Source: Candidatus Omnitrophota bacterium
GTDB taxonomy: Bacteria; Omnitrophota; Gorgyraeia; M55B152
DNA: 52,505 nt
Direction of reading: 5' to 3'
NCBI GenBank assembly: GCA_018399975.1
Contig: JAGYNU010000002.1
Location: 1-52,505, forward strand
Numbering within the stretch: the stretch's first letter is position 1; every line of letters starts with the position of its first letter. The notes under the pieces are model-generated. The model did no database searches and was not told where the DNA came from. It saw only the letters and a list, made by a program, of their open reading frames with translations. Positions 1,327 through 50,300 of the stretch are shown here, piece by piece. The position numbers were made by a program, and so were the translations under genes.

Positions 1327-1343
1327 ATTACTCCCCTTCAATT

Positions 1344-1380
1344 AGCTCATAGCTCTTGGCTCATAGTTCTTAGTTCATAG
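1344..1380. repeat. Tandem heptamer array AGCTCAT/AGCTCTT/GGCTCAT/AGTTCTT/AGTTCAT
   Basis: Five in-phase 7-mers read directly from the sequence. The same words recur at 49885-49907. Confidence 0.8.
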
Positions 1381-2685: not shown

Positions 2686-3762
2686 CTAAACACTAACTAC
2701 ATTCTTTACTACAGTTAAAACTTCTTTAGGCTTTATTTCATTTATGCACCTATTATCATTATTACATTTAGGCATTTTAAATCTATGATAACATGGCCTG
2801 CATGGAAGCGATTTAGAAATTACCACATTATCATTATTAGCAGGATATGGACCATAAACTTTTTCATCTACGGGCCCAAAGATAGATATTGTTTTGATTC
2901 CACACCCGACTCCCACATGTAAAGGATATCCGTCATTACAAATTAACAAATTGCATTTTTCTAAAAGGGCAGCAAAGGTCAAAAGATCGATTCCACCTGC
3001 TAAATTATATACATTTTCTATATTATCTAAATAACTTATTACACCGTCACAAATCTTTTTTTCGTCATCCAAGCCAAATAAAATAATACGAGCATTAAGC
3101 TCTTTAACTAAACTATCTATAATTTCAGCAAAATATCTTGCAGGCCAATATTCATAACCAACATTACTACCGCAACTTACTCCACCTGCAGGAGCAATCC
3201 CTATTAACAATTTATTATCTTCTATACCCTTATCTTTTAAAATATTTTCAGCTTTATTTTTGTTATCTTCCGGAATATGAAGTTTAATTAAACCAACCTT
3301 TACTGTTATCCCAAGATATTTAAGCAACTTTAAATAATATTCAGCTACATGACTATCCCTATATCCATCGATGGCAATCTTAATACTTAAAAAAGTCCCC
3401 TTGTTTTTATAATTATATCCTATCCTCGTTCTAATACCTATTAACATAAGAAGAAAACTGTACCACCTTTCTAAAGACAAATCAAAAACCACATTATACT
3501 TATCTTTCTTTATAGACTTTAATAAATTTACTATTTCTTTAACATATCTAACTTTGGGATGCCTACAGATAGCCTTGAATTTCTCTCTTTCATAAACATA
3601 AATATTATCGATATCTAAATTTGCTTCTAAAAGAGGTTTAGCTTTTTTATTACACAAAAATCCAATTTTAGACTTTGGATAAGCCTCTTTTAAAACCTGA
3701 ATCATAGGGGTAGTCAATAAAACATCCCCAACACCAAAAAAATTAATAATTAGAAAATTCAT
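2686..3762 (-). CDS. Glycosyltransferase family 9 (heptosyltransferase-like)
   Basis: N-terminus MNFLIINFFGVGDVLLTTP and C-terminal DGYPLHVGVGCG resemble the GT9 fold. The start is uncertain: ATG 3762 versus GTG 3804, neither with an SD. Confidence 0.65.
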   Translation of the reverse strand: MNFLIINFFGVGDVLLTTPMIQVLKEAYPKSKIGFLCNKKAKPLLEANLDIDNIYVYEREKFKAICRHPKVRYVKEIVNLLKSIKKDKYNVVFDLSLERWYSFLLMLIGIRTRIGYNYKNKGTFLSIKIAIDGYRDSHVAEYYLKLLKYLGITVKVGLIKLHIPEDNKNKAENILKDKGIEDNKLLIGIAPAGGVSCGSNVGYEYWPARYFAEIIDSLVKELNARIILFGLDDEKKICDGVISYLDNIENVYNLAGGIDLLTFAALLEKCNLLICNDGYPLHVGVGCGIKTISIFGPVDEKVYGPYPANNDNVVISKSLPCRPCYHRFKMPKCNNDNRCINEIKPKEVLTVVKNVVSV

Positions 3763-3866
3763 TTTTAAAAATAGATTTTCTTTAGGATAAGTAGATAAAT
3801 ACACCCAAGAAATTATATCTCAGCCTACTCGAATTGAAATCCATTATATCATTTAACTTAAAATGG

Positions 3867-4089
3867 AACCCCACGGGGCAAGCCCTGTGAAATATACTTT
3901 TGTATTTCACGGGGCAAGCCCGTGGTACCTTTATGTACCCGTCTTCGCCAAACACTTATTGTGTTTGGCTTCGCCGAGGTTATCCGCCAACACATTTAGG
4001 TGGCTCCTTCATTTGGTGACATCTCGCCGAAGCATAACTTTCGCATTCATCCACGGGGAAACCCGTGGTTTTCTGCGAAGGCGGATAAA
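3867..4089. repeat. 223-bp multi-hairpin interspersed element, copy A
   Basis: Near-identical to 16247-16469. Shorter derivatives lie at 45643-45830 and 46160-46202. It is GC-rich relative to its surroundings and ends 5 nt from the stop codon at 4095. Confidence 0.9.
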
Positions 4090-7760: not shown

Positions 7761-7800
7761 TATAAAACCTCCCTTAATTTACTCACTTCGTTTGTAAATA

Positions 7801-7922
7801 CGCAGATTGGCACAGATTTTTAAAACACCACACAAGATTAGCACAGATAAATGATCAAGATACAATTATTTAATATTCAAACTAATACTTTTATTTGGTC
7901 ATTGTAATTTGGTTATTCTCAT
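7801..7922. repeat. ~125-bp conserved repeat core, copy I (CACAGAT words ... ATTCTCATG)
   Basis: Aligns with 17089-17229 and 27921-28050 with only a few substitutions or small indels. A partial copy lies at 41840-41890. Confidence 0.9.
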
Positions 7923-8185
7923 GTCCTATGTCCTAGGTCCTATGTCCTAGGTCCTATGTCTTGCTACTTGCTACTTGCTACTTGTTACTTGTTACTTGCT
8001 ACTTGTTACTTGCTACTTGTTACTTGTTACCTGTTACCTGTTACCTGTAACCTGTAGCTTGTAGCTTGTTTTTCGTCATTCGTCATTCGCCTGCCTGCCG
8101 GCAGGCAGGGATTTCGTCATTTGTTTGTTACTTGTTACTTGTTACCTGTTACCTGTAACCTGTAGCTTGCAGCTTGTAGCTTGTA
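7922..8185. repeat. Phase-locked tandem heptamer arrays (TGTCCTA > CTACTTG > TTACCTG > TAGCTTG), split by TCGTCAT words and a palindrome
   Basis: 21 consecutive in-phase 7-mers at 7922-8068. A second array lies at 8123-8185. The region ends 10 nt before the stop codon at 8196. Confidence 0.9.
8090..8109. repeat. 20-bp perfect palindrome CCTGCCTGCCGGCAGGCAGG
   Basis: A second full copy lies at 17124-17143. Left-half copies lie at 17075-17088 and 27907-27920. It is absent from otherwise identical flanks at 28190-28200 and 41955-41965. Confidence 0.9.
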
Positions 8186-8195
8186 TACTCTGTTT

Positions 8196-8438
8196 TTAGT
8201 CAGGTGTATCTATAATTGCCAAATTATTTCCAACAACTACCTTTTCTCCTTCCTCGACACAACGCTCAAGAAGAACTCCTGCAATAGGACTAGTTATGCT
8301 ATAAGTATTCTCCGCAGAACTTATTTCTATTAAATCATCCCCTATTTCTATTTCTTCATCCTCTTCAAAATACCAGTAAGTAACAATGCCCTCTACTATT
8401 TCATCATTTATAGGAGAAAAACGAATTTCTTCCTCCAT
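8196..8438 (-). CDS. Lipoyl/biotinyl-attachment-like domain protein lacking the modifiable lysine (80 aa)
   Basis: The sequence EGIVTYWYF..IGDDLIEISSAENTYSITSPIAGVL..GEKVVVGNNLAIID aligns to the lipoyl-domain pattern, with E in place of the lipoyl-lysine. AAAGGAGA SD is present and the start is coupled to the mdh stop. Confidence 0.6.
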   Translation of the reverse strand: MEEEIRFSPINDEIVEGIVTYWYFEEDEEIEIGDDLIEISSAENTYSITSPIAGVLLERCVEEGEKVVVGNNLAIIDTPD

Positions 8439-9369: not shown

Positions 9370-9425
9370 GTTCTCATCCTTTTTATTTATCTTTTGTTCC
9401 TCTCTTTTATTTCAGACATCAGACT

Positions 9426-9453
9426 TCTGTTATCTGTCTTCTGTTATCTGTCT
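9426..9453. repeat. Heptamer array TCTGTTA/TCTGTCT x4 overlapping the 3' end of the dehydrogenase gene
   Basis: Four in-phase 7-mers. The stop codon at 9430-9432 and the last ~7 codons lie inside the array. Confidence 0.8.
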
Positions 9454-10521
9454 TATTATCGCATCTGCCATTTGTGAAGTTCCTACAGCAGAAGGGTCAT
9501 CTCTATTAAGTTTTAAATCATAAGTAACATTTTTACCTTCTTGAATAACTTCTGAAACAGCGTTTTCTAAATTATTAGCTGCTTTATCTTCTCCTATATA
9601 TCTTAACATAAGCATGCTTGATAAAATCATAGCTGAAGGGTTAACTTTATTTTTTCCTGCATACTTAGGCGCACTACCATGCGTAGCTTCAAATACTGCA
9701 ATATCATCCCCTATATTAGCTCCAGGCGTAACCCCAAGGCCTCCGACCAATCCTGCACAAAGATCAGAAATTATATCCCCATAAAGATTAGGAAGAACTA
9801 AAACATCGTAAAGTTCAGGTTTCTGCACAAGTTGCATACTCATATTATCAACAATTCTATCTGTGAATTCTATCTTATCTTTATAATCCTTGGCAATTTT
9901 TCTATAAGTTTCCAAAAACAAACCATCTGAAAACTTCATTATGTTTGCTTTGTGAACTGCTGTAATTTTTTTACGTTTATTTTTTATAGCATATTTAAAT
10001 GCAAAATCTATTATTTTACTAGAACCGTATTCAGATATGGGCTTTATGCTTATCCCAGAATCACTTCTTATTTGTTCACCATTAAGCTTATGAATATAAT
10101 CTATTAAACTTTTAGTTTCGGTGCTATGTACAGGAAATTCAATACCAGCATATAAATCCTCGGTATTCTCTCTAATAACGATTAAATCTACTGCACTATA
10201 ATGTGACTTAACTCCTTTATATAACTTACAGGGCCTAACACAAGCATAAAGATTTAATTCCTTTCTAATCTTTACATTAACAGACCTAAAGCCTTCCCCT
10301 ACAGGGGTAGTAACTGGCCCTTTCAATGCTATCTTATATTTATTAATTAAATCTAAAGTAGAATCGGGTAACGGCGTTTTATACTTTTCCATAGCATCAG
10401 CCCCTGCTTCTGCAATATGCCAATTAATAGTTACCCCTGTAGCTTCGACACATCTTTTAGCAGCTTCTGATACTTCAGGGCCTACGCCATCTCCGGGGAT
10501 AAAAACTATATCATAATTCAT
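9430..10521 (-). CDS. Isocitrate / homoisocitrate / isopropylmalate-family (beta-decarboxylating) dehydrogenase
   Basis: Motifs IPGDGVGPEV, LYACVRPC, IVRENTEDLYAG and NLYGDIISD. There is a 4-nt overlap with the upstream gene. Confidence 0.85.
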   Translation of the reverse strand: MNYDIVFIPGDGVGPEVSEAAKRCVEATGVTINWHIAEAGADAMEKYKTPLPDSTLDLINKYKIALKGPVTTPVGEGFRSVNVKIRKELNLYACVRPCKLYKGVKSHYSAVDLIVIRENTEDLYAGIEFPVHSTETKSLIDYIHKLNGEQIRSDSGISIKPISEYGSSKIIDFAFKYAIKNKRKKITAVHKANIMKFSDGLFLETYRKIAKDYKDKIEFTDRIVDNMSMQLVQKPELYDVLVLPNLYGDIISDLCAGLVGGLGVTPGANIGDDIAVFEATHGSAPKYAGKNKVNPSAMILSSMLMLRYIGEDKAANNLENAVSEVIQEGKNVTYDLKLNRDDPSAVGTSQMADAIIRQITEDR

Positions 10522-16208: not shown

Positions 16209-16246
16209 ACGAATTTCCTCCCAATAAAAATTCTAAAAAATAATGA

Positions 16247-16469
16247 AACCCCACGGAGCAAACCCTGTGAAATATACTTTTGTATTTCACGGGGCAAGCC
16301 CGTGATACCTTTATGTACCCGTCTTCGCCAAACACTTATTGCGTTTGGCTTCGCCGAGGTTATCCGCCAACATATTCAGGTGGCTCCTTCATTTGGTGAT
16401 ATCTCGCCGAAGCATAACTTTCGCATTCATCCATGGGTAAACCCGTGGTTTTCTGCGAAGGCGGATAAA
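16247..16469. repeat. 223-bp multi-hairpin interspersed element, copy B (between rpsM and rpsK)
   Basis: Same length and orientation as copy A with scattered substitutions. It ends 6 nt from the rpsM stop at 16476. Confidence 0.9.
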
Positions 16470-16475
16470 TTATAA

Positions 16476-16853
16476 CTACTTCTTTTTACCCTTTTTAGAA
16501 CCAACAGTACGTTTGGGCCCTTTACGTGTTCTAGCATTAGTTTGAGTCTGTTGCCCACGCACAGGAAGCCCTTTTATATGCCTTAGTCCTCTATAAGACC
16601 TTATATCCTTTAATCTACGTATATTCTCTTGTGTTTCTCTTTTTAAATCGCCTTCAATTTTATAATCCTTTTGTATAACCGCAGTAATTCGAGAAACTTC
16701 TTGGTCATCTAATTTATCTGCCAATTTTCGAAAATCTATATTGGCTTTCTTTAATATATCTCTTGCTGCATTCTTACCAAGACCGTAAATATAGGTCAAA
16801 GCAATTTCTATATGCTTATCTTTAGGCACATCAACACCTGCTATTCTAGGCAT
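16476..16853 (-). CDS. rpsM: 30S ribosomal protein S13
   Basis: N-terminus [32 protein letters not shown] 7 nt upstream. Confidence 0.95.
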
Positions 16854-16868
16854 TACTTACTCCTTTTT

Positions 16869-16945
16869 TAATGAGAACATAACTTAGCGAACAAAGTGAA
16901 GCTAAGTTATTTGTTCGAATTAAATCCGCCATTTTTTGTGGCGGA
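16869..16945. repeat. Leader hairpin module (TAATGAG - bulged 12-14-bp hairpin - GAATTAAATCCGCC-loop-GGCGGA), copy at the rpsM 5' region
   Basis: Stem GAACATAACTTAGC / GCTAAGTTAT(TT)GTTC. The same architecture with different stems is found at 22645-22716, 41211-41288, 41299-41381 and 45544-45597. Confidence 0.8.
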
Positions 16946-17088
16946 GGCTATCTACTTCGTTTGTTTTTTAGATCAATTAGGTCAATCAGACTTCAGACAA
17001 CAGAGAACAGACAACAGATATCAAACTTCGTATCACAGAATTATGCATTTGCTTGTTTCGTCATCCATCATTCGCCTGCCTGCCGGCA

Positions 17089-17229
17089 AACACAGATTAT
17101 CACAGATTTTTAAAAGCTACACACCTGCCTGCCGGCAGGCAGGGATTATCACAGATTAATGATCAAGATACAATTATTTAATATTCAAACTAATACTTTT
17201 ATTTGGTTATTGTAATTTGTCATTCTCAT
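17089..17229. repeat. ~125-bp conserved repeat core, copy II (carries the 20-bp palindrome at 17124-17143)
   Basis: Aligns to copies I and III, except that an internal segment is replaced by GCTACACA plus the palindrome. Confidence 0.85.
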
Positions 17230-17420
17230 GTCCTATGTCCTATGTCCTATGTCCTAGGTCCTATGTCCTATGTCCTACTATGTCCTAGGTCCTATGTCTT
17301 GTTACTTGTTACTTGTTACTTGTTACCTGCTACCTGTTACCTGCGACTTGTAGCTTGTAGCCTGTAGCCTGTAGCCTGTAACTTGTAGCCTGCAACTTGC
17401 AGCCTGTAGCTTGTAGCTTG
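17229..17420. repeat. Tandem heptamer array, 27 units with one 3-nt slip
   Basis: Direct reading. It has the same order of word families as 7922-8068 and 28050-28178. It ends 2 nt from the rpmJ stop codon. Confidence 0.9.
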
Positions 17421-17422
17421 TT

Positions 17423-17536
17423 CTATCCTTGTCTCTGTTTATGCTTAGGATTAATACAAATAACTCTAACTACACCTTTACGCTTTATTATTTTACAATT
17501 ATCACACATTTTTTTAACAGAAGCTTTTACTTTCAT
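17423..17536 (-). CDS. rpmJ: 50S ribosomal protein L36 (37 aa, zinc type)
   Basis: Hand translation gives [37 protein letters not shown]. It is too short for the ORF track. It occupies the canonical position between infA and rpsM. Confidence 0.9.
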
Positions 17537-18575: not shown

Positions 18576-19235
18576 TTATCTGACTAAATTTCTTTTTTCT
18601 AATATTTTTTCTACTTCTAAAAAAACTTTACTCGCTTTTTTATTTCCATCTAATTCTTCTACTATATTTTTATTATTATAATAATCCAATAAAGGTTCTA
18701 TTTGCTTTTTATAAACTTTTAATCGTTGCTTTACTACTTCCGGTTTGTCATCATCACGCTGTATTAAATCTGAGTTGCACTTATCACATTTACCTTCAAT
18801 TCGAGGTTTTCTATTAACTATATGATAATTGGCCCCGCATTTACTACAAATTCTTCTTCCAGATAACCTTTGTATAGCTACCTCATCAGATGTATTAAAA
18901 TATAAAACTAACTCTATAGGTTTACCAAATGATTTCAGTTCTTTATCTAATCCAATAGCCTGATTTTCGGTGCGAGGAAAACCGTCTAATATAAAATTTT
19001 GCCCAATATTATCTTCTTTCAACTTACTAATTAAAATATTTATAACAATTTCATCAGGAACTAATTCTCCTCGCTTCATATAATTTTCGGCTTCTTTTCC
19101 AATCTTCGTACTTTTTCTCACTGCTTCTCTTAGAAGCTGCCCTGTAGAAACATGGAAAACCTTAAAATTTTCCGAAATTATCTCTGCTTGTGTTCCTTTT
19201 CCAGCACCAGGTGGACCTAATAAAATTAAACGCAT
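18576..19235 (-). CDS. adk: Adenylate kinase (zinc-lid type)
   Basis: N-terminus MRLILLGPPGAGKGTQ and lid cysteines CSKCG..CDKCN. ATG 19235; the track start runs into the repeat array. Confidence 0.9.
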   Translation of the reverse strand: MRLILLGPPGAGKGTQAEIISENFKVFHVSTGQLLREAVRKSTKIGKEAENYMKRGELVPDEIVINILISKLKEDNIGQNFILDGFPRTENQAIGLDKELKSFGKPIELVLYFNTSDEVAIQRLSGRRICSKCGANYHIVNRKPRIEGKCDKCNSDLIQRDDDKPEVVKQRLKVYKKQIEPLLDYYNNKNIVEELDGNKKASKVFLEVEKILEKRNLVR

Positions 19236-19241
19236 AATCTT

Positions 19242-19321
19242 AAGTATCAAGTAGCAAGCAACAAGTATCAAGTAAGAAATTGTTTATACCAACTTGTTAC
19301 TTGTTACCTGAAACTTGTTAC
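19242..19321. repeat. Two heptamer-word blocks in opposite orientation (AAGTATC/AAGTAGC... then CTTGTTA/CTTGTTACC...)
   Basis: Read directly from the sequence. The blocks are partially complementary and sit in the secY-adk spacer. Confidence 0.7.
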
Positions 19322-22644: not shown

Positions 22645-22716
22645 AATGAGGTCATAATTTACGGAATTTTGTCGTAAATTATATGACCAAATTAATCCGC
22701 CAATTTTTATGGCGGA
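22645..22716. repeat. Leader hairpin module, copy at the rplF 5' region
   Basis: AATGAG, then stem GGTCATAATTTACG / CGTAAATTAT(AT)GACC, then AAATTAATCCGCC-loop-GGCGGA. Confidence 0.8.
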
Positions 22717-22881
22717 TGCTATCTACTTCGTTTGTTTTTTAGGTCAATTAGAGCAATTAGAAATTTTTCCCTTTCTATTTTTCCCTTTCGGCTTTCAGCT
22801 ATGAGCTTTTAACTATGAACTAAGAGCTCATTTATTTTTGTGGCGGAAGCTAAAAACCCATTTATCCTTATAACGAATAAT

Positions 22882-27828: not shown

Positions 27829-27920
27829 TTTATCTCACTTTGTTTGATAGAACACAGATTAAAGTTTACAGATTACAATAAAAGACTTTCTAATATCTGT
27901 CTTCCGCCTGCCTGCCGGCA

Positions 27921-28050
27921 AACACAGATTATCACAGATTTTTAAAACACCACACAAGACTAGCACAGATTAATGATCAAGATACAATTATTTAATATTC
28001 AAACTAATACTTTTGTTTGGTTATTGTAATTTGTTATTTGTCATTCTCAT
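27921..28050. repeat. ~125-bp conserved repeat core, copy III
   Basis: Aligns to copies I and II. It is preceded by the half-palindrome at 27907-27920. Confidence 0.9.
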
Positions 28051-28384
28051 GTTCTAGGTCCTATGTCCTAGGTCCTAGGTCCTATGTCCTATGTCTTGCT
28101 ACTTGTTACTTGTTACCTGTTACCTGCTACTTGCAGCCTGCAGTTTGTAGCTTGCAGCCTGCAGCTTGTAGCTTGCAATTCGTCATTCGTCATTCTGATT
28201 TCGTCATTTGTTTGTAACTTGCAATTTGCAATTTGTTTGTAATTTGTTATTTGTCATTTGTAATTTACTTGTATCTTGTATCTTGTATCTTGTTACTTGT
28301 ATCTTGCCTGCCCCGTAGCACCCGCAGGGTTGGTACGGAGTTTTCTGTTTTCTGTTTTCTGTCTTCTGTTTTCTGTTTTCTGTC
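28050..28384. repeat. Heptamer arrays (TGTCCTA > CTACTTG > TTACCTG > CAGCCTG > TCGTCAT words > TGCAATT/TGTAATT/TGTATCT), one GC hairpin (28311-28340), then a TTCTGTT array abutting the rplW stop
   Basis: The 7-nt period is readable over more than 250 nt. This is the spacer between rplW and rplB. Confidence 0.9.
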
Positions 28385-28669
28385 TTATGTTACATCTATA
28401 GTATGTCCTTTTTCTAAAGTTACTATTGCCTTTTTCCAATCTCGTCTTTTTCCTTCTTTAAAACGCACTCTTCTCTTTTTGCCATACATATTTATAGTAT
28501 TAACATTTTTCACTTTAACAGAATATATTTTTTCGACAGCTTCCTTTACCTGTATTTTATTAGCAAATTTCTGGATAACAAAAAGGTATTGATTGTCCTG
28601 TAGCATTCGAGTCCCCTTCTCAGTTCTCATCATGCTAAATAAAATATCATAACAATCTTCTTTCTTCAT
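28385..28669 (-). CDS. rplW: 50S ribosomal protein L23
   Basis: Motifs TEKGTRMLQDNQYLFVIQKFANK and WKKAIVTL. Confidence 0.95.
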   Translation of the reverse strand: MKKEDCYDILFSMMRTEKGTRMLQDNQYLFVIQKFANKIQVKEAVEKIYSVKVKNVNTINMYGKKRRVRFKEGKRRDWKKAIVTLEKGHTIDVT

Positions 28670-33436: not shown

Positions 33437-36400
33437 TTATTTATCATTTACTGTTTCTTTTTCTTGCTCATTATTAGAATCTTTCTGTTTTTCAATTTCT
33501 CCTATTAACGAAGAAACATCTTTCTTTACCTTAATTTCACGATTTTGCCTAAATCCTGTCCCTGCAGGAATTAAATGTCCCATTATAACATTTTCTTTAA
33601 GTCCATACAAGTTATCAGTTTTACCACTTGCAGCTGCATCCGTTAAAACTCTTGTTGTTTCCTGAAAACTAGCTGCAGATATAAAACTTTCTGTAGTCAA
33701 AGACGCTTTGGTAATTCCTAATAATAAAGGAGACGCGCTAGCCGGTTTCCCCTTATTTTCTCTAACTTTTTGATTTTCTTCTTTAAAACAAAATTTATCG
33801 ATATGTTGTCCAGGTAAAAAATCAGTATCTCCAGGGTCTTCTATCTTAACCTTTCTAAGCATTTGTTTTATAATTAACTCAATATGTTTATCATTTATTT
33901 TAACACCTTGTAATCTATAAACTTCTTGAACTTGATCTAATAAATATTTCTGCAATTCTTTTTCACCGCGTATGTTAAGGATATCATCAGGAACTATTGG
34001 ACCATCGGTTAAACGGTCCCCACTTGAAACCTTATCGCCTTTATATACATTTAAATGTTTTCCATGTGGAACCAAATACTCCTTTTTCATTCCAGAAGGC
34101 GATTGAATTATAACCCTTCTTTGCCCACGTTTAGCACTACCAAATTCCACTACACCATCGATTTCACTAATTACTGCGGGGTTTTTTGGCTTTCGGGCTT
34201 CAAACAGTTCTGCAACCCTTGGTAATCCTCCTGTAATATCTCTAGTTTTGGTAACTTTTCTAGGAGTTTTTGCCAAGATAGTCCCAGCTTTAACTTTTTG
34301 ATTTTCCTTTACTGCGATATGAGCTCCAGCTGGTAATGGATAAATAGCCACAACATTATTCTTTTTATCCAAAATTAATATCTGCGGATGGAAATCCACA
34401 GAATGTTCTATAATAACTTGTCCAGTTATACCTGTAGCCTCATCAATTTCTCTATGAGAGGTCTTACCATCAACAATATCCTCAAATTCTATCTTACCTT
34501 CTACTTCTGTTAGTATAGGAGACGAATAAGGATCCCATTCTACAAACTTATCACCTTTTTGAACTTTATCTGACTCTTTTACATTTAAAAATGCACCTTG
34601 TGGAATAACATGTCGTTCTAATTCAATGCCTTCTTCATCATTTATACTAATTTGAGAATTTCGATTAAGAACTATAAACTTTTTCTTTGAAACAGAAACT
34701 ATTCTTAATCCATGAAATACTATTTTCCCATCATGCTTAGATTCTATAAAAGATTGCTCCACAATTCTACTAGCAGTTCCTCCAATATGAAAAGTTCTCA
34801 TAGTTAACTGAGTACCAGGCTCTCCAATTGACTGAGCAGCAATTACACCTACAGCCTCTCCTGCTTCTACAAGACGACCATTTGATAAACTAGTACCATA
34901 ACATTTCGAACAAACGCCCCTTGAAGCTTCACAGGTTAGAACACTTCTAATTTTTATTTTTTCGATACCTAATTCCTGAATCCTATTTGCTTTCTTCTCT
35001 GTTATAACTTCACCCGATTTTACTATTACTTCATCTGAAACAACATCAACTATGTTATCAGCAGCAACTCTACCTACAATTCTTTCCTTTAAACTTACTA
35101 CTATTTCATCACCTTCCACGATGGCTTCTACATAAATGCCATTTAAAGTGCCGCAATCTTCCTCAGTAACAATAACATCTTGTGCAACATCGACTAAACG
35201 TCTTGTTAAATAACCTGAGTCAGCTGTTTTTAAAGCCGTATCAGCTAATCCTTTTCTACCCCCATGAGATGAAATAAAATATTCTAATGAAGTTAATCCC
35301 TCTCTAAAACTCGAAATAACAGGACTTTCTATAATTTCTCCTGAAGGTTTAGCCATTAAACCTCTCATACCTACTAATTGTCGAATTTGTTGTTTAGAAC
35401 CCCTTGCTCCTGAATCAGCCATCATAAATAAAGGATTAAATTTATCTAAATGTTTAAAAACTGAATCGGAAACCTGTTCTGTAACATGAGTCCATATATC
35501 TACTATTTTATTATAACGCTCCCCTGCCGTTATTATCCCTTGCTCGTAAGATTTCTCAACTTCGCCAACTTTTTTATAAGCTTCCGTTACAAGTTCTTCT
35601 TTATCTTCTGGAATAACTAAATCACTAATAGACAAAGAAGCTCCTGAATAAGTAGCTTCTTTAAAACCTTTTTCTTTAACTTTATCCAATAATTTAACAA
35701 CCGCATCATATCCAAATTCTTCATAACAGTTTTTTATTACATCAGATAAAGCTGATTTATTTAACAATTTGTTAACAAAATTCATTTCTTTAGGCAAAAT
35801 ATCATTAAAAAGTACTTTACCAACAGTTGTTTCAATTAATTCAGAATTTATTCTTACTTTTATACTTGCATGCATATGTACTGCTCCATCTTCATATGCA
35901 GAAATGACTTCAGCAGTGTTAGAAAACATTTTACCTTCGCCTTTAACACCTTTTCTCATCTTCGTAAGATAATACAAACCAAGCACTATATCCTGCGTTG
36001 GAGAAACAATCGGACCTCCATGAGCAGGAGAAAATATGTTGTTACTGGATAACATCATTAATCTGGCTTCCATTTTAGCTTCAGCAGATAAAGGAACATG
36101 TACAGCCATTTGGTCACCATCAAAATCTGCATTAAAAGGCGTGCAAACCAATGGATGCACTTTTATAGCTTTACCTTCTACTAAAATAGGCTGAAATGCT
36201 TGTATTCCTAATCTATGTAAAGTAGGTGCACGATTCAATAATACTGGATGCCCCTTAATAACCTCATCTAATATATCCCATACTTCTACTTCTGTACGTT
36301 CTACCATTTTCCGAGCGCTTTTAATAGTATGGACATGCCCTCTCTTCTTTAATTCCTTTATAATAAAAGGCTCAAATAATTCTAAAGCAATTCTTTTTGG

Positions 36401-39400
36401 CAAACCACATTGATGCAATTGCAATTCCGGCCCAATGACTATAACGCTCCTACCAGAATAATCTACTCTTTTACCTAATAGATTTTGTCTAAATCTACCT
36501 TGTTTACCTTTAAGCATTTCACTTAAAGATTTTAGAGGCCTATTACCTGCCCCCATAACGGGACGGCCATGTCTTCCATTATCAAACAAAGCATCAACAG
36601 CTTCCTGTAACATCCTTTTTTCATTTCTAATTATTATCTCAGGAGCATTAAGTTCCATTAATTTCTTTAGGCGGTTATTTCTATTAATCACTCTTCTATA
36701 CAAATCATTTAAATCACTAGTAGCAAATCTCCCTCCATCTAAAGGAACTAAAGGCCTTAAATCCGGAGGGATAACAGGAATAACGTCCATAACCATCCAA
36801 GATGGTTCATTCCCTGACTTTTTAAAAGATTCTACAATTCTTAATCTTTTCAATACTTTTTTTCTAACTTGTTTACCACGTTTTCTCTTAGCTTTACTAT
36901 GCAAATCAGTTGCTAATTCATTTAAATCTAAATTCCCCAACAATTCTCTTATAGCTTCTGCTCCCATTTTAGCAGTAAAGCTTTTACTATATTTAGCCTT
37001 TGCCTCTCTATATTTGTTTTCTGATAATAAATCTCCTGTTTTAAAAGGACTATCTCCCGGGTCTATTACACAATACTCCTCGTAATAAATAACCCGTTCT
37101 AATTGTCTCATACTCATGCCTAATAAAGCTCCCATTCTAGAAGGCATAGTCTTAAAAAACCATATATGAGAAACAGGAGAAGCAAGTTCTATATGCCCCA
37201 TCCTTTTCCTTCTGACATCAGATGTGGTAACTTCAACCCCGCATCTGTCGCATATTATCCCTTTATTTTTTATTCTCTTATATTTTCCACAATAACATTC
37301 CCAGTCTTTGGTAGGACCAAAAATCCTTTCGCAAAATAAGCCTCCTTTTTCTGTTTTTAATGTTCTATAATTAATAGTTTCTGGTTTTGTTACTTCACCA
37401 TGAGACCAAGATCGAATCACATCAGAAGAAGCTATATTTATACGTATAGAATTAAAATCACCATCTTTTGATATAGAATCTTTGTCAAAATCTTGCTCTG
37501 TACGAATATCTAAAGCCAAACCCATAAGTTCTTTAATCAATACATTAAAAGATTCAGGTGTCCCTGTTTGCAAAGAACAATCGCCTTTTACAATATTCTC
37601 GTATATACGAGTGCGTCCTTTAACATCATCACTCTTAACTGTCAATAACTCCTGTAACATATAAGCAGCACCATAAGCTTCAAGTGCCCATACCTCCATT
37701 TCCCCGAATCTCTGCCCTCCGTATTGAGCTCTACCTCCTAAAGGCTGCTGTGTAACCAAAGAATAAGGGCCAATAGAACGAGCATGAATCTTTTCATCAG
37801 CTAAATGTATTAACTTCAATACATACATATAACCAACGGTTATTTTCTGGTCAAAAGGCTGTCCTGTTAAACCATCATAAAGTATAATTCTTCCATCTTC
37901 TGGCAACCCAGCCTTTCTTAACAATTCTTTTATTTCTTCTTCATTAATACCTCCAAAAACAGGCGTAGCTACATATTTATTTAATATCTCAGCTGCCCAT
38001 CCTAAATGAGTTTCTAAAACCTGTCCTATATTCATACGCGAAGGAACCCCTAACGGATTTAAAACCATATCAACTGGAGTTCCATCTGGTAAAAATGGCA
38101 TATCTTCTTCAGGCAATATTCTGGCAACAACCCCCTTATTGCCATGTCTACCAGCCATTTTATCTCCCACAGACAGCTTTCGTTTACTTGCTATATAAAC
38201 AACCACCCGTTTTATAACCCCTGGTGGTAATTCATCTGCTTTTTTCACCTTATCTATTTGTCTTTCTTGTTCATAAGTCAAATCATCTATTTGATCATTA
38301 AATAATCTTAAAACTTTCTCGATTTCTTCATTTATATCATCATTTTTTAATTCAATTTCATCTACATCACAATTGACTAATTTTTTAATATCAGTTTTAG
38401 TTATTTTCTTTCCCTTTTCAATAATAGGCTTACCTGTATTAATATCAAGTAAATCAGCAGCTAATGTATGGCCTTCTATTATTTCCCCTACTCTACTAAT
38501 TTTCCCCTTTAAAATATCATCAATTTTACCTTGATATTCTTCTTCAATTTCTTTTATACGAGCTCTTTCTTTAGACCTTTGAGATTTAGTGCGAGCAGGC
38601 TCCTTTCTGGAAAAAACTTTTGTATCTATAACGATACCTTCTACACCAGAAGGAACTTTTAAAGAAGCATCGCGTATATCTCCAGCTTTTTCGCCAAAAA
38701 TAGCTCTTAACAATTTTTCTTCTGGAGTAAGTTCTGTCTCCACCTTAGGAGTAATTTTCCCTACCAAAACATCTCCTGACTCTACTTTAGCTCCTACCCT
38801 AATAATCCCATCTTCATGTAAATCTTTTAAAGCTTCTTCTCCTACATTAGGAATATCTCTAGTAATCTCCTCTGCCCCTAATCTAGTATCTCTAGCTTCA
38901 ATCTCAAATTCTTCAATATGAACAGAAGTATAAACATCATCTTTAACTAACCGTGAACTAACTAAAATAGCATCTTCAAAATTATGTCCATGCCAAGACA
39001 TAAAAGCTACTAAAACATTTTTACCTAAAGCAATTTCTCCTTCTTTTGTAGCAGGTCCATCTGCTAATATATCTCCTTTTTTTACCTTAGCCCCAATAGA
39101 TGTCACTGACCTTTGATTAATACAAGTATTGGCATTAGAACGTTTAAATTTTTTTAGTTTATAATCTGTAGAACCAACTGTTATAGTACTACCATCTATA
39201 TAATTTACATTACCAGAATTTTTAGCTATAATTAAAGCTCCTGAATCTCTTCCAACTTTTTCCTCCATGCCGGTTCCAACCAATGGTGGTTCAGGAAATA
39301 ATAACGGAACAGCTTGACGTTGCATATTAGCTCCCATAAGAGCACGGTTTGTATCATCATGTTCTAAAAAAGGAATCAAACTGGCATCAACGCTAACAAT

Positions 39401-41194
39401 CTGTCTGGGAGAAACATCTATATAATCTATTTCTTTAGGAGATACACTAATAACATCCTGTTTATACCTACATTTTACTTGTTTATCCAAAAATTTTCCC
39501 TTATTATCTAACCTTGCATTGGCTTGAGCTATAATTTTGTTATCTTCTATATCAGCAGTTAAATACTCAACCTTTTTTGTAACTATACCTTTTTCAACCT
39601 TTCTATAAGGAGATTCCAAAAAACCCAATCTGTTAACTTTAGAAAATGTAGTTAAAGTTGTAATTAAACCAATATTAGGGCCTTCTGGAGTTTCAATAGG
39701 ACAAATCCTTCCATAATGCGAATGGTGAACATCACGGACTTCAAAACCAGCTCTTTCTCGGCTTAACCCCCCTGGGCCTAATGCACTAAGTCTACGTTTA
39801 TGTGTAGTCTCAGCTAAAGGATTAGTCTGATCCATAAATTGTGACAATCTACCTCTACCAAAAAAATCTCTAATTACCGATGATACTAACTTTGTATTAA
39901 CCAAGTTTTGAGGCATCATAGTCTCAGTATCATATATATTCATTCTCTCCCTAGCAGAACGAGCTACTCTCGCTAAACCTACCTGTATTTGATTAGCTAA
40001 AAGTTCGCCAACTGTCCTTATTCTCCTATTACCTAAATGGTCAATATCATCTACTTCTCCCTCTCCTCTTCTTAAATTCAAAAGATATTTTACAGCTTCA
40101 ATTATTACTTTTTTATCTAATTCTCTTTTATCATCAGAAAAATTTGTATTAAATTTTCGATTAATAATAAACCATCCAACTTTGCTCATATCATACCTTT
40201 TGGAGTCAAAAAACATTCTATTTAACAAAGATTTGGCATTTTCTTCAGTAGGAGGGTCTCCTGGGCGAAGCTTTCTATACAATGCCAACAAGGCTTCTGT
40301 TTGATTTTTGGTATTATCTTTCTCAAAGGAATTTCTAATTTCAACAAAATCATTACTAACTAATTTTATTTGCTTAACTTTTACATTTTTTAACTTGTTT
40401 CTAATCAACTTATTGGTAATTTTAGTTAATGCCGGAACAACTATCTTCTCCTTCTTTTCACCATTTTTATCCTCTAATATTGTTTCTTTAATAGGTTCTG
40501 CAAGCACTTTATCTAAATATTTTTTCCATTGTGAACTCCTCTTTATACTTACATTTTCTATTCCGCATATCTCTTTTAAAATATCTTGATCAGTCGAATA
40601 CCCAAGAGCACGCAAAAATGTAGTAAAAACAAATTTACGCCTTCTATCAATATAAACATTTAATCTATTTGATTTATCAAATTCAAATTCTATCCATCCG
40701 CCTCTATAAGGTATAATACGAGCAGAAAATATACTTTTCCCTCTAATTCTAGTTGTTTCACCAAATGACACTCCAGGAGATCTATGTAATTGATTAACAA
40801 CGACTCTATCATCGCCATTTATAATAAAATTACCTTCTTCGGTCATTAATGGCAAATCTCCAAAATAAACTTCTTGTTCTTTAATTTCTTTATCAGAACG
40901 TAATCTTATTTTTGCTTTTAAAGCACCTGCATAAGAAAAACTTCTTTCCCTAGCTTCTTCTTCACTATATTTAGACCTATCTATAGTGTAACTAATAAAT
41001 TCTAAAATATATTTACCATCAAAACTCTCTATGGGAAAAATATATTCAAAAATAGCCTGTAAACTTTTATTTTCCCTTTTCGTTTTAGGAACATCAAACT
41101 GTAAAAAATCCTCATATGACTCCACCTGAGTTGCAACTAAATTTGGCAAGCTAAAAACTTCTTTTGTTTTACCAAAATTTAGTCTTGTAATCAT
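33437..41194 (-). CDS. rpoBC: Fused DNA-directed RNA polymerase beta-beta' subunit (2585 aa)
   Basis: One uninterrupted 7758-nt ORF. Residues 1 to ~1234 carry beta motifs ([27 protein letters not shown]). Residues from ~1247 carry beta' motifs (zinc [14 protein letters not shown], catalytic [12 protein letters not shown]). The linker [12 protein letters not shown] is encoded at ~37455-37495. AAGGAGAGG SD precedes ATG 41194. Confidence 0.9.
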
Positions 41195-41210: not shown

Positions 41211-41511
41211 TAATGAGACCATGATTTACACGACTATAAGGAGTGTAAATCATATGGTCGAATTAAATCCGCCAATGTTTGTGGCGGATATAGCCCACTA
41301 ATGAACACATGATTTAGAGAGTTCAAGCGAATCTAAATCATATGTGTGAATTGAATCCGCCGTAGCTTTAGCGTAGGCGGAAGTTCATAATTTACGGAAA
41401 TCCTGTCCGCCAATGTTTGTGACGAAAGCATATAACTTAGCGAATCCTTCGATTTTACTCAGGATAAACAAAGTGAAGCTAAGTTATATGACCGAATTTT
41501 ACCCGCCAAAG
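41211..41511. repeat. Four tandem leader hairpin modules (two full, one truncated, one long-loop) in the rplL-rpoBC spacer
   Basis: Module positions are 41211-41288, 41299-41381, 41385-41428 and 41429-41511. Each has a bulged hairpin with its own stem sequence plus a CCGCC-loop-GGCGG hairpin. Confidence 0.8.
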
Positions 41512-41839: not shown

Positions 41840-42056
41840 AAACCACAGATTATCACAGATTTCTAAAACCACACAAGATTAGCACAGAAATTGAAACCTG
41901 CAGCCTGAAGTTTGCAGCATGTAGCTTGAAGCTTGCAGCTTGTTTCTTTTCGTCATTCGGATTTCGTCATTTGTCATTTGTTTTCTTTCTGTTTTCTGCC
42001 TGCCCCGTGAAATCTTATTTCTACGGGGTTATCTGTCTTCTGTCTTCTGAATAAAC
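41840..42056. repeat. Partial core, TGCAGC-type heptamers, TCGTCAT words, hairpin CCCCGT-N14-ACGGGG (42003-42028) and TCTGTCT units abutting the rplL stop
   Basis: Direct reading. The hairpin recurs as its exact reverse complement at 49998-50023. Confidence 0.85.
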
Positions 42057-43303: not shown

Positions 43304-43987
43304 TTAGCTAAGTTTAATTCTTATTCCAGGGCCCATAGAACTTGTTAAAACTATCTTTTTAATAAAACCTGCTTTAATCGAAGCAGGTTTATTTAATTGT
43401 ACTGCAGAAATCATAGCTTTAGCATTTTCAACAATCTGATTTTTATCGAATGAAAGTTTTCCTATGGTCACATGTATATTCCCCCCCGAATCCATTTTAA
43501 ACTCAATTTTACCTTTTTTAAGCTGCTGGATAGCATCAGATAAATTATCAGTAAGTGTACCTGCTTTAGGATTTGGCATCATTCCTCGAGGTCCTAAAAT
43601 TTTTCCCAAGCTACTTATATCTTTCATCATAGAAGGAACAGATACTGCAATATCAAAATCTAACCAACCTTCCTGAATCTTTTTAATTAATTCTTCGCCA
43701 CCTGCATCTATTGCCCCGGCTTTTTTAGATTCTTCCACCAAGTTATCCTTACAAAACGCTATAATTCTTAGTTCTTTTCCAGTTCCATGCGGTAAAACTA
43801 CTGTGCCTCTTACAATCTGGTCAGACTTTTTGGGGTCGGCATTCAAATTAAAACTCAATTCCAAAGTCTCATCAAATTTACAAGAAGGGAATTGTTTTAA
43901 AATATTAACTGCTTCCTCTATGTCATATGCCTTTTCAAAATCTATATCTTTAATACCCTCTATATATCGTCTACTATGTTTTGTCAT
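43304..43987 (-). CDS. rplA: 50S ribosomal protein L1
   Basis: Sequence DPKKSDQIVRGTVVLPHGTGK. ATG 43987 is preceded directly by heptamer repeats with no SD. Confidence 0.95.
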   Translation of the reverse strand: MTKHSRRYIEGIKDIDFEKAYDIEEAVNILKQFPSCKFDETLELSFNLNADPKKSDQIVRGTVVLPHGTGKELRIIAFCKDNLVEESKKAGAIDAGGEELIKKIQEGWLDFDIAVSVPSMMKDISSLGKILGPRGMMPNPKAGTLTDNLSDAIQQLKKGKIEFKMDSGGNIHVTIGKLSFDKNQIVENAKAMISAVQLNKPASIKAGFIKKIVLTSSMGPGIRIKLS

Positions 43988-43990
43988 ATT

Positions 43991-44153
43991 ACTGGTTTCT
44001 GGTTACTGGTTTCTGGTTTCTGGTTACTGGTTTCTGGTTACTGGTTACTGGTTTCTGGTTACTGGTTACTGGTTACTGGTTTCTGATTTCTGGTTTCTGG
44101 TTACTGGTTACTGGTTTCTGGTTTCTGGTTTCTGATTTCTGGTTTCTGGTTTC
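43991..44153. repeat. Tandem heptamer array ACTGGTT/TCTGGTT/TCTGATT (~23 units)
   Basis: Direct reading. It fills the whole rplK-rplA spacer and encodes the last 26 codons and the stop codon of the rplK ORF. Confidence 0.95.
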
Positions 44154-44585
44154 TATTATTTCTACCCCCATACTTCTAGCAGTTCCTTTAACTGTTTTAA
44201 TAGCAGATTCTAAATCTACCGCGTTTAAATCTTCCATTTTTTCCTTTGCTATCTTTTCTACCTGATTTTTAGTTAAACTGGCAACTTTTTCTTTATTAGG
44301 AACTCCAGAAGCTTTTGCTATACCACATTCTTTTTTTATCAAAACAGGGGTAGGAGGATTCTTAACTACAAAAGAAAAACTCCTATCTGCATAAATTTCT
44401 AATACAACAGGTAAAGTTAAACCCGGCCTATCTTTAGTTTGTTCATTGAATTGTTTGCAAAAATCCATTATTTTTACACCATATTGGCCTAAAGCAGGAC
44501 CAACAGGCGGCGCAGGATTCGCTTGCCCCCCTGGACAATAGAGCTTAAGTTTAGCCATTATTTTCTTTTTTTTCTTTTTAGCCAT
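44073..44585 (-). CDS. rplK: 50S ribosomal protein L11 with 26-aa repeat-encoded C-terminal tail
   Basis: Motifs [14 protein letters not shown] and [12 protein letters not shown], then [25 protein letters not shown] read from the heptamer array. Confidence 0.93.
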
Positions 44586-44692
44586 TTTATCTCACTCCGT
44601 TCGATAGAGTACAGATTACAGTTTACAGAAAACAGAATTCTATATTACACTAAATCCCAGGATTTTTTTATTTTTCTGTTATCTGTTATCTG

Positions 44693-45223
44693 TTAAATTT
44701 TTTCTACCTGCCAATATTCTAATTCCACAGGAGTAGACCTACCAAAAATCGATACAGAAACTCTTAATTTACCCTTTTCAGGTTCAATTTCTTCGATAGA
44801 ACCTGTAAAATTAGTAAATGGCCCATCTTTTATCCTAACTCCTTCTCCTGTTTCAAATTCTACTTTTGGGGTAGGTTTTTCTTTTTTCTCTTCTGTCTTT
44901 TTTAATATACCCTTAACTTCCTCTTCCTTTATTGAAACAGGACCTGCTCCATAGCCAACAAAACCTGTAACCCCAGGAATTCCTTTTATCAAATACCAAG
45001 TTTTCTCATCCATTTCTATGTTAACTAAAATATACCCTGGGAAAAATCTTCTTTCTGAAATTTTTTTCTCTCCATTTTTAACTTCAGATATTTTTTCTTT
45101 AGGAATAAAAACTTCCGAAATCTTATCTTCTATTTTATTTTGCTTAAATTTCTTTTCAATATGTGCTTTAACTTTTTCTTCTTGTCCTGTTAAAACATGT
45201 ATAATATACCATTTTTTTTCCAT
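44693..45223 (-). CDS. nusG: Transcription termination/antitermination factor NusG
   Basis: NGN domain WYIIHVLTGQEEKV and KOW GEGVRIKDGPFTNFTG. Its stop codon lies inside a TCTGTTA x3 array (44675-44695). Confidence 0.95.
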   Translation of the reverse strand: MEKKWYIIHVLTGQEEKVKAHIEKKFKQNKIEDKISEVFIPKEKISEVKNGEKKISERRFFPGYILVNIEMDEKTWYLIKGIPGVTGFVGYGAGPVSIKEEEVKGILKKTEEKKEKPTPKVEFETGEGVRIKDGPFTNFTGSIEEIEPEKGKLRVSVSIFGRSTPVELEYWQVEKI

Positions 45224-45543: not shown

Positions 45544-45597
45544 TAATGAGTACATCATTTAGCAAATCTAAATAAAGCTAAATGATATGCACGAATT
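45544..45597. repeat. Leader hairpin module abutting the 5' end of tRNA-Trp
   Basis: TAATGAG, then stem GTACATCATTTAGC / GCTAAATGAT(AT)GCAC, then GAATT. It lacks the CCGCC hairpin. Confidence 0.75.
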
Positions 45598-49860: not shown

Positions 49861-50300
49861 TAATTGACCTAATTGACCTAAATTAGCTCATAGCTCTTAG
49901 CTCATAGTAAAGAAAGAAACAAGAAAGATACAAGATACAAGAAAGATACAAGTAACAAGTCGCAGGTAACAGGTAGCAGGTAACAAGTAATAAGTTACCC
50001 CGTAGAAATAAGATTTCACGGGGCAAGCAAGATACAAGATGCAAGATACAAGAAAGATACAATAACCAAGATACAAGATACAAACAAATTACAATATACA
50101 ATAAACAAATTACAAATGACAAATTGACCTAATTACTTTAAAACAAGTAGAGAGTAGAAAGTAGGAAGTAGAGAGACAAGGACATAGCCCGTGAACCAGA
50201 GATTTATTTTATAAATCACGGTTCAGGGCTAGGGTGAACCGTACTTCGTTCTGGTTCCCCCTAGGACATAGGACATGAGAATTACAAATGACAAATCAAG
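49861..50300. repeat. Repeat island in the divergent spacer
   Basis: Contains AATTGACC words and AGCTCAT heptamers. The CTTGTTA/CCTGTTA families and TGTCCTA-ATTCTCATG appear here as reverse complements. Also contains hairpin 49998-50023, AGTAGAG heptamers (50146-50187) and two GC hairpins (50192-50264). Confidence 0.85.

Follow-up and report, generated by a model that had tools for sequence, protein, structure and literature searches.

Tandem heptamer arrays in the conserved operons of a Candidatus Omnitrophota bacterium and their apparent organisation as copies of a mosaic element

What are the tandem 7-nt repeats found in the gene spacers of an AT-rich (32% GC) Candidatus Omnitrophota bacterium, and how might they have come to lie there? 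Heptamer repeats between bacterial genes have been on record since 1990. We analysed a stretch of 52,505 nt (positions 1 to 52,505 of contig JAGYNU010000002.1, assembly GCA_018399975.1; hereafter the window), whose genes are almost all on the minus strand. The focal array, at 17229-17420 downstream of rpmJ, had been read in an initial annotation, made from the sequence alone, as consecutive heptamers that change by one base at a time. Our analysis showed that the period-7 signal is real and that the three large arrays of the window are paralogous, a point which that annotation had missed.

The parse of 17229-17420 into 27 heptamers with one 3-nt slip (CTA, 17278-17280) was exact. Tandem Repeats Finder (TRF) also recovered period-7 arrays at every other place for which they had been annotated, namely 7921-8070, 28049-28306, 43992-44154, 9424-9454, 28340-28391, 42032-42049, 44675-44695, 1343-1380, 49884-49907 and 50145-50172. 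There are about 30 period-7 arrays in the window, which make up 1.0-1.4 kb together. The lag-7 identity was 0.81 in the focal stretch and 0.29 window-wide, with values of 0.7 or more in 0.8% of 185-nt segments. A sliding detector assigned 1039 nt of the window to lag 7, 50 nt to lag 11, and none to lag 12 or to any other lag from 4 to 10. Period 7 is essentially the sole tandem period in the window. Applied to the orthologous rplKAJL loci of other bacteria, 644 kb in all, the identical detector found 95 nt of period-7 sequence.

The walk attributed to the focal array, in which neighbouring units mostly differ by one base, was borne out. Adjacent units of the focal array differed on average by 1.12 positions and those of the array at 7922-8068 by 0.90, against 2.68 and 2.55 when the order of units was shuffled, and 0 of 5000 shuffles gave a value as low. 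The second array had been annotated as free of slips, and its 22 units (7921..8072) are indeed in phase. A TG was said to recur every 7 nt throughout, but the bases that stay invariant in phase are the fourth (C) and the sixth (T), and no TG keeps a fixed phase. The stretch at 28050-28305, described as behaving alike, does contain a period-7 array, but several phase slips of 2-3 nt occur within it. In the rplK-rplA array, the unit-order shuffle test revealed no ordering of the variants (p=0.46).

The focal array (copy B, 17229..17423, minus strand) starts 2 nt past the rpmJ stop codon (17423-17425). Read in sense, it consists of the blocks (CAAGCTA/CAGGCTA/CAAGTTR)n, (CAGGTAR)n, (CAAGTAA)n, CAAGACA and (TAGGACM)n, with its one 3-nt slip. 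It is followed by a tail (17040..17228, minus strand) of the form TGAGAATGACAAATTACAATAACC...GTATTAGTTTGAATATTAAATAATTGTATCTTGATCATT...AATCTGTGATAATCTGTG, whose first ~35 nt are legible as decayed heptamers. Copy A lies past a lipoyl-domain open reading frame (ORF). Its main array (7921..8072, minus strand) has the block order and the end units of the focal array, both reading TGTCCTA ... TAGCTTG on the plus strand, and its tail (7761..7920, minus strand) extends to the start codon of an Lrp/AsnC-family gene. Copy C is a mosaic (28045..28391, minus strand) past rplW (28385..28669), between that gene and rplB. It opens with (RACAGAA)7, which overlaps the rplW stop codon, and continues with a GC hairpin, with CAAGATA, AAATTAC and AATGACG arrays, and then with the succession CAAGCTR, CAGGTAA, CAAGTAR, TAGGACM and a tail (27880..28044, minus strand).

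The order common to copies A, B and C is (CAAGCTA/CAGGCTA)n, (CAGGTAA)n, (CAAGTAA/CAAGTAG)n, CAAGACA, (TAGGACA/TAGGACC)n, TGAGAAT and the unique tail. The three tails are near-identical and align over ~130 nt, and a 39-mer in them is exact in 3/3 copies, where chance would give 0. Blocks hold varying numbers of units from copy to copy. Because the block order and the near-identical tail are common to them, the three large arrays are dispersed paralogous copies of one composite mosaic element. Since the arrays are duplicated copies, the walk through sequence space is mostly inherited and locally resized, not produced afresh at each site. A small ORF in the tail was considered and rejected, as the reading frames are unlike across the copies (by eye, 14, 7 and 9 codons). 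None of the relatives' loci was found to contain the tail, and a 26-mer from it was absent from the Joint Genome Institute (JGI) metagenomes.

Copy A extends distally (8073..8196, minus strand) with (AATGACG)n on either side of a 21-nt palindrome (CCCTGCCTGCCGGCAGGCAGG, 8090-8109), which splits the copy with a like unit succession on both sides, and with a second run from CAAGCTA through CAGGTAA to CAAGTAA, starting 14 nt past the stop codon of the lipoyl-domain gene (80 aa). Copy D, in the spacer from rplL to rpoBC (41842..42056, minus strand), is partial. It contains (GAAGACA)2, a 27-nt hairpin (ACCCCGTAGAAATAAGATTTCACGGGG, 42003-42029), AATGACR units, a short CAAGCTN array and the distal half of the tail, and is without the TAGGACM block and the tail 39-mer. 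Copy E (49884..50300, plus strand) lies upstream of ftsA in a divergent spacer and holds CAAGATA, CAAGTAA/CAGGTAA, the 27-nt hairpin (49997-50023), AAATTAC, AAGTAGA, a further hairpin, (TAGGACA)2 and TGAGAAT. Although its orientation in the window is reversed, it is again sense to its downstream gene, the plus-strand ftsA.

Hairpins are thus nested in the arrays and tails. The 21-nt palindrome of copy A recurs in the tail of copy B (CCTGCCTGCCGGCAGGCAGG, 17124..17143, unstranded), where it forms a clean insertion of 19-20 nt; copies A and C do not have it at that site. Its core is also present in other spacers of the relatives L202 and L204, in L204 within a TAGCTCA array. The 27-nt hairpin sits in an ACAGAAG array in copy D and in a CAAGTAA array in copy E, and the rplW-rplB spacer of L202 holds a hairpin related to it. 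The idea that such mini-hairpin insertions keep the 7-nt phase was rejected, the copy B insertion being 19-20 nt long and the arrays tolerating slips of 2-3 nt.

A heptamer-repeat system such as the initial annotation proposed should leave its signal outside the window as well, and period-7 arrays were found in close relatives too. These relatives were obtained by a SecY search (identities up to 94%); an L1-based metagenome search gave 54% identity at most. In the AT-rich clade (85-94% SecY identity), arrays occupy matching spacers, but their units and lengths are unlike. The rpmJ-rpsM spacer, with its 195-nt array and tail in the window, contains (AAATTAC)3 AAAATCC AAATGAC in L202 (88%) and is 30 nt long with no array in L206 (76%, 50% GC). 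The secY-adk spacer has 30 nt of CAAGTAA/CAGGTAA in the window, about two units in L202 and in L203, and in L205 (86%) a TAGCTCA-family array plus at least 8 CAAGTAA/CAGGTAA units up to the contig end; in L206 the two genes abut, with no array. The 570-nt mosaic between rplW and rplB corresponds to 153 nt with a hairpin only in L202, 112 nt in L204 (86%) and 45 nt in L206. At 94% SecY identity, in L207, there are indels at the gene-array junction: secY ends in a stop codon, TAA, that belongs to the array (about 1890-1894), and the spacer array past secY has one arm that falls short of its counterpart in the window by about one unit. In the distant relatives with fused rpoBC (45-59% GC), the spacers are compact and free of arrays. 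The arrays turn over rapidly and are not conserved site-specific elements. The L204 contig ends 3 nt past secY, and the L205 contig (array at 3001-3068) ends inside a heptamer array. Copy numbers in metagenome-assembled genomes (MAGs) may be unreliable, because heptamer arrays fragment short-read assemblies.

The TAGGACM block has a far wider distribution. Upon a scan for (TAGGACM)3 with one genome per species, TAGGAC[AC] tandem arrays were found in at least 118 stretches from at least 12 phyla, at host GC contents of 33-71%. Among the matches listed, which are the basis of all hosts and counts given for these arrays here and below, the hosts include Gemmatimonadota, Acidobacteriota, Bacteroidota, Planctomycetota, Chloroflexota, Spirochaetota, Myxococcota, Actinomycetota, Vibrionaceae, Shewanella, Halomonadaceae, Caulobacteraceae and an Oscillatoriales cyanobacterium, and some single genomes have such arrays on 10-17 contigs. 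At these loci, period 7 accounts for 13.1 kb and each other lag for at most 0.4 kb. By crude ORF calls, the spacers are convergent in 43 cases, co-directional in 46 (28 sense, 18 antisense) and divergent in 3. The arrays often begin 0-40 nt past a stop codon, also drift into neighbouring units, and have comparable counterparts in finished genomes of cultured bacteria. The idea of further units shared across phyla was rejected: only TAGGACA and TAGGACC are in common with the window, and the genomes had been selected on TAGGACM.

Two Gemmatimonadales MAGs carry a structured element of ~310 nt within TAGGACA arrays, with heptamers on both sides. Its occurrences are L041 (6163-6485), L055 (3176-3440 and, on the minus strand, 1044-1364), L116 (414-734, minus strand), L001, L104 and L090. 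The ends are conserved (5′ TAGTCCCTTACGGACAAGATTGAACAC... and ...GGTTCCGGCTCTGCCGGCT 3′) and enclose a long internal hairpin. The element gave no Rfam match and has no inverted terminal repeats.

The other arrays of the window lie close to gene ends. The whole rplK-rplA spacer is taken up by (AACCAGT/AACCAGA)23 (43992..44154, minus strand), which ends 3 nt before the rplA ATG. The L11 (rplK) ORF runs ~26 codons into this AACCAGW array (44073-44154) and gains ~26 array-encoded residues, and the rplA leader consists of the array entirely, with no Shine-Dalgarno sequence. As the array leaves no room between the inside of rplK and the position 3 nt before the rplA ATG, we read the two genes as co-transcribed. 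The first triplet of (TAACAGA)3 (44675..44695, minus strand) is the nusG stop codon TAA (44693-44695), and (GACAGATAACAGAA)2.2 (9424..9454, minus strand) supplies the last four icd codons and their TAA stop (9430-9444). More generally, RACAGAA/TAACAGA units lie on or directly past the stop codons of rplW, nusG, icd and rplL, and AATGACR units border GC-rich hairpins. A TGAGCTA-family array (1343..1380, minus strand) is placed between two sugar-modification genes, and arrays are therefore not limited to ribosomal operons. The secY-adk spacer (19235..19321, minus strand) has a short CAAGTAA/CAGGTAA array and then its inverted counterpart (TACTTGA...). These two can pair into a ~30-bp hairpin, which produced a spurious sub-threshold Rfam match to a microRNA precursor.

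The description of the arrays as intergenic holds in that all of them lie in spacers, but several overlap the 3′ ends of icd, nusG and rplK; this overlap (three arrays) is limited to the last codons or the stop codon. Arrays start 0-14 nt past five stop codons in the window, with one exception in the divergent ftsA spacer, and, apart from the rplK-rplA array that adjoins the rplA start, they set in at stop codons and stop 60-370 nt short of the following start codon. The sense strand of the arrays has 45% A and 16% T, compared with 37% and 31% in the whole coding strand. Stops in all three frames occur in 12/30 arrays in sense and in 4/30 antisense, while 5 arrays are stop-free in sense and 14 antisense. 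Two small arrays break the orientation rule. Because the antisense strand of most arrays has no stop codons, mechanical ORF lists contain spurious plus-strand ORFs through them (17203-17367, 28017-28217, 28233-28592, 43803-44135 and others), one of which masks the real rplW (28385-28669, minus strand).

We consider it fairly probable that the arrays are slippage-driven, co-transcribed repeat DNA carried in mosaic dispersed elements, filtered by selection and subject to rapid turnover. Heptanucleotide microsatellites of the kind known as short tandemly repeated repetitive (STRR) sequences or long simple sequence repeats (LSSRs) would be the modules of a mosaic family that colonises spacers downstream of stop codons. 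Slipped-strand mispairing would lengthen and shorten the arrays in 7-nt steps, quasi-palindromic cores (GTNAC, CCTAGG, AGCT) may hold the slipped hairpins in register, and point mutation followed by local amplification would yield blocks of sister units. Whole mosaics would be spread by duplication or recombination. Selection would act mainly as a filter, so that arrays persist where they are harmless, outside coding and promoter regions, and the strand that is rich in A and in stops but poor in T is mostly the one kept as mRNA sense. The arrays would be co-transcribed with their operons, and their effects (3′ hairpins, all-frame stops, unstructured leaders and short C-terminal extensions) are probably incidental.

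Several points weigh against this explanation. Slippage is here deduced from paralogues and relatives. The presence of one heptamer at many loci, in ~12 phyla and at 33-71% GC, is not what random seeding predicts, and its recurrence across phyla could be due to a specific generator or to a factor acting in trans. Slippage by itself does not account for why units of 7 nt are so strictly preferred to those of 6 or 8. The tails are so nearly identical (39/39) as to suggest constraint or a recent spread, and the tail could thus have a function, for example that of a promoter. Lastly, array orientation tracks the downstream gene even at the divergent ftsA, which fits a role at the transcript level equally well.

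Such a role would be that of an RNA cis-element, with the arrays as multivalent platforms for a single-strand RNA-binding protein of ~7-nt footprint that tunes re-initiation, coupling or mRNA stability; we regard this as unlikely, although it is the alternative that survives best. Candidate binders, which carry the same doubt, would be cold-shock-domain proteins, S1, CsrA (through the AGGA in UAGGACM) or a HutP-like ring reading UAG-N4 repeats. The HutP site has UAG spaced 7 nt, as in (UAGGACM)n. The TAGGACM block does present UAG every 7 nt; no HutP gene lies within the window, and there is no leader-terminator arrangement. An RNA platform would agree with arrays located inside obligatorily co-transcribed operons, with the biased composition of the sense strand, with the unstructured rplA leader made wholly of AACCAGW units and devoid of a Shine-Dalgarno sequence, and with an orientation that follows the downstream gene in five mosaics, the flipped ftsA copy included. 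The recurrence of TAGGACM across phyla, whatever the GC content, also fits, as does the proposal of S1, cold-shock protein (Csp) or CsrA as binders of the TAACTGA repeats, which also occur in ribosomal-protein operons (MacGregor 2015, PMC4679880). However, the orthologous spacers of close relatives differ in unit family, copy number and even orientation, and some are array-free. No single sequence-specific binder fits, because at least 10 unrelated unit families coexist, and in the co-directional spacers across phyla the bias of 28 sense to 18 antisense is not significant.

Somewhat less likely still, in our judgement, is that the arrays are the footprint of a conserved, horizontally mobile mechanism working in a 7-nt register, either a generator or transposition system that seeds and targets particular heptamers or a trans-acting factor that binds single-stranded nucleic acid. 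This would explain why TAGGAC[AC] is found in at least 12 phyla (33-71% GC) and at many loci per genome, why mobile hairpins and the ~310-nt Gemmatimonadales element lie inside arrays, and why no other period is amplified. If it were true, the block grammar and the 7-nt-period rods of this Omnitrophota genome would be functional parts.

An improbable alternative centres on the tail, which might bear an outward promoter or operator and, together with an array serving as spacer or as curved, phased DNA (3 units equal 2 helical turns), form a mobile promoter or insulator cassette; such a composite could sit inside operons without polar effects. Every one of the three near-identical tails separates an array from the gene that follows it (rpsM, rplB, Lrp), whose start lies 150-370 nt further downstream. 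As read from the sequence, the tail has the motif AATCTGTGMTAATCTGTG in duplicate, with TGTGATAAT resembling an extended −10 sequence, and in the ftsA copy TAATTAGTG is duplicated in an analogous manner. Polarity would otherwise be a risk of the insertion of 570 nt between rplW and rplB. However, sigma-70-type sites in copies A-C were no commoner than in shuffles, and none lay at the conserved tail motif on the sense strand, although the sigma-70 consensus may not be that of Omnitrophota. Because these sites match the shuffled frequency, we claim no promoter in the tail. The tail is also missing from the relatives' loci and the JGI metagenomes, as described above, and many arrays (rplK-rplA, nusG, icd, secY-adk) have no tail. 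Terminator-like sites exceeded shuffles in copy B only.

The arrays could also be REP-like (repetitive extragenic palindromic) hairpin elements whose 7-nt-period rods serve the upstream gene as terminators, as RNase III sites or to stabilise its 3′ end, but we hold this to be very unlikely. In its favour, copy A folds with a z-score of −6.85, copy C with −2.5, and the focal array with −3.0 in sense and −3.8 in antisense. On either strand, the structured arrays fold into rods of 5-bp helices parted by 2x2 loops, with one helix per unit. The rods arise because the unit cores are quasi-palindromic or mutually complementary: GUUAC pairs with GUAAC, GCUAC with GUAGC, GUAAC with itself (with a central A.A mismatch) and CCUAGG with itself. 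In addition, arrays start right past stop codons and are enriched between convergent genes in other phyla, and 67/129 TAGGACM arrays elsewhere are pure TAGGACC, which has the palindromic CCTAGG core. However, the AACCAGW array is unstructured as RNA (z=+0.4, −1 kcal/mol over 173 nt), and two further arrays fold no better than shuffles (z=−0.6 and +0.1). The rods are not followed by a U-tract, and folding is automatic from quasi-palindromic cores and need not be selected. That the structure itself is selected is weakly supported, because the arms of the focal copy are unbalanced and not mirrored, and 9/129 arrays in other phyla have an inverted partner. We read the rods as a property that may favour in-register slipped intermediates. 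With z from +0.4 to −6.9, the arrays can be called neither uniformly structured nor uniformly unstructured, and the count of 9/129 likewise rules out that TAGGACM arrays of other phyla generally come in inverted pairs. An Rfam search (at gathering thresholds and at E<=1) gave nothing on the arrays or the tail, the only matches being two tRNAs and a sub-threshold Alpha_RBS upstream of rpsM. That the arrays are mis-assembled or collapsed low-complexity sequence is scarcely credible: the contigs of the relatives L204 and L205 do end in or next to the array downstream of secY, so that copy numbers may be under- or over-estimated, but like unit families stand at orthologous sites in independent JGI and Logan assemblies, intact genes in conserved order flank the arrays, and finished genomes of cultured bacteria have comparable ones.

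The genes of the window are tuf, secE-nusG-rplKAJL, a fused rpoBC, rpsL-rpsG-fusA and the S10, spc and alpha operons, followed by metabolic genes and, at the far end, a second EF-G gene and the divergent ftsA. The fused rpoBC has 2585 aa, with the rpoB part at residues 3-1231 and the rpoC part at 1249-2552. Candidatus Omnitrophota was the source of every named best match of SecY and of the RpoB/C junction, which agrees with the initial statement, made from the fusion, that this genome is not cyanobacterial. The fusion (33437-41194) is also present in the more distant relatives L119, L120 and L121 (45-59% GC) and is for this reason a trait of this Omnitrophota clade, not special to this genome. 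One fusion-bearing match is annotated as a Lupinus albus protein and is probably contamination.

Some other features of the spacers were observed. The L7/L12 ORF (42057-42728, minus strand) has 223 aa, and the L12 profile is restricted to residues 96-223; its first 95 codons overlap T/C-rich repeats of period 9 and period 15. Either the protein has an N-terminal extension there, or its start was mis-called within a repeat-filled rplJ-rplL spacer of ~285 nt. The sub-threshold match to the Alpha-operon ribosome-binding-site RNA is at 16821-16915 (minus strand, 24.6 bits, E=0.12). As this is the expected place upstream of rpsM, it suggests that the native rpsM leader is intact downstream of the inserted mosaic.

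Two other dispersed repeats were seen on the minus strand. One is an element of ~230-260 nt (3830-4089, 16210-16469, 45571-45830 and, partially, 46164-46206), which opens with TTTATCCGCCTTCGCAGAAAACCACGGGTTTACCCGTGG, has several hairpins and lies directly past stop codons, for example those of rpsM and tuf. Its copies are 71-90% identical and gave no Rfam match. The other comprises two-hairpin modules (16890-16990, 22674-22761 and 41233-41508), in which TCCGCCA...TGGCGGA is followed by AACTTAGC...GCTAAGTT. These are found just upstream of rpsM, in the 22656-22881 spacer and, repeated 3-4 times in tandem, ahead of rpoBC. The modules may belong to leaders, may be regulatory structures or may represent another mobile repeat.

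These observations add Omnitrophota as a new host phylum of heptamer arrays, which here lie within the most conserved operons of the cell. They indicate that long arrays which seem to evolve along their length can be paralogous copies of one mosaic with a fixed block order, and that quasi-palindromic cores, by forming hairpins in a 7-nt register, may offer a structural rationale for some units. Since TAGGACM is also present in easily cultured strains of Shewanella, Grimontia, Vibrio and Vreelandella, its function and dynamics are open to experiment. In practice, such arrays break short-read assemblies, yield spurious antisense ORFs and shift annotated gene ends (L11, icd, nusG, secY).

How do these arrays compare with known heptamer-repeat systems? 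The likeness to STRR sequences noted initially was confirmed as far as organisation is concerned, the arrays being non-coding, head-to-tail repeats of 7-nt units. The STRR sequences of heterocystous cyanobacteria, attributed to Mazel and co-workers in 1990, reportedly consist of tandem 7-nt units in several families per genome, intergenic and dispersed, and the unit consensus of STRR1-3 is said to be CCCCAGT, TTGGTCA and CAACAGT. None of these consensus sequences occurs in the unit catalogue of the window, the nearest units matching at 5-6 of 7 positions; the closest to STRR2 is AAATGAC (reverse complement GTCATTT, a rotation of TTTGTCA), at 6/7. The window arrays differ further in their Omnitrophota host, their conserved succession of unit blocks and their shared unique tail. 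Small dispersed repeats (SDRs) of 21-27 nt are said to have been found by Elhai and co-workers in 2008 nested in Nostoc heptamer arrays. By description, the 21- and 27-nt hairpins found here are SDR-like, in that they lie in heptamer arrays in varied unit contexts and are present or absent from copy to copy, and the mosaic intergenic organisation resembles that of REP sequences and bacterial interspersed mosaic elements (BIMEs).

The TAACTGA repeats of marine Beggiatoaceae, some Cyanobacteria and Bacteroidetes are intergenic, also lie inside ribosomal-protein operons, have stop codons on the forward strand and a scattered phylogeny, and in some genomes have other heptamers mixed into their long arrays (MacGregor 2015, PMC4679880). 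The BOGUAY sets have 2-6 copies of one unit a few nt upstream of start codons, whereas the window has up to 23-27 units of many families, which mostly begin at stop codons; only the rplA array adjoins a start codon. The TAACTGA unit is absent from the window, the closest being (TAACAGA)3 (44675-44695), with 6/7. As their unit consensus is not matched, the arrays are neither STRR nor TAACTGA repeats in the strict sense.

The GGGAATC/GGGGAYT heptamers of Xanthomonas and Nostoc are over-represented in non-coding DNA and within ~50 bp of stop codons, under-represented between divergent ORFs, variable in copy number and mostly transcribed (Rehm 2015, PMC4692102). The likeness to these lies in the positional rules. 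Their units are G-rich, form G-quadruplexes and prefer runs of four, in contrast to the A-rich window units, which form no G-quadruplex and in some arrays give duplex rods.

LSSRs, with units of 5-11 nt, are sporadic across the phylogeny (Mrazek, Guo and Shah 2007, via PMC4679880), and heptanucleotides are the commonest class of them in many bacteria, with slippage as the proposed cause (Mrazek 2007, summarised in PMC4679880). The window arrays agree with this class: they are tandem 7-nt units beyond chance, mainly non-coding, and change in length by whole units between paralogues and relatives. Both in the window and at the TAGGACM loci elsewhere, they also follow the positional rule (Rehm 2015) of lying near stop codons and being depleted between divergent ORFs. 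The census, as summarised in that paper, is statistical work without ordered block successions, shared tails or nested hairpins. The papers examined contained no mention of TAGGACA or TGTCCTA repeat units or of such repeats in Omnitrophota. The initial suggestion of an independent or undescribed system therefore stands for the Omnitrophota, of which no description was found, but not for the phenomenon at large, since intergenic heptamers are documented elsewhere and TAGGAC[AC] arrays are present in at least 12 phyla. The general phenomenon is known; what is new is the Omnitrophota host, the inherited block order, the shared tail, the rods of 7-nt period, the nested hairpins outside cyanobacteria and the cross-phylum occurrence of TAGGACM.

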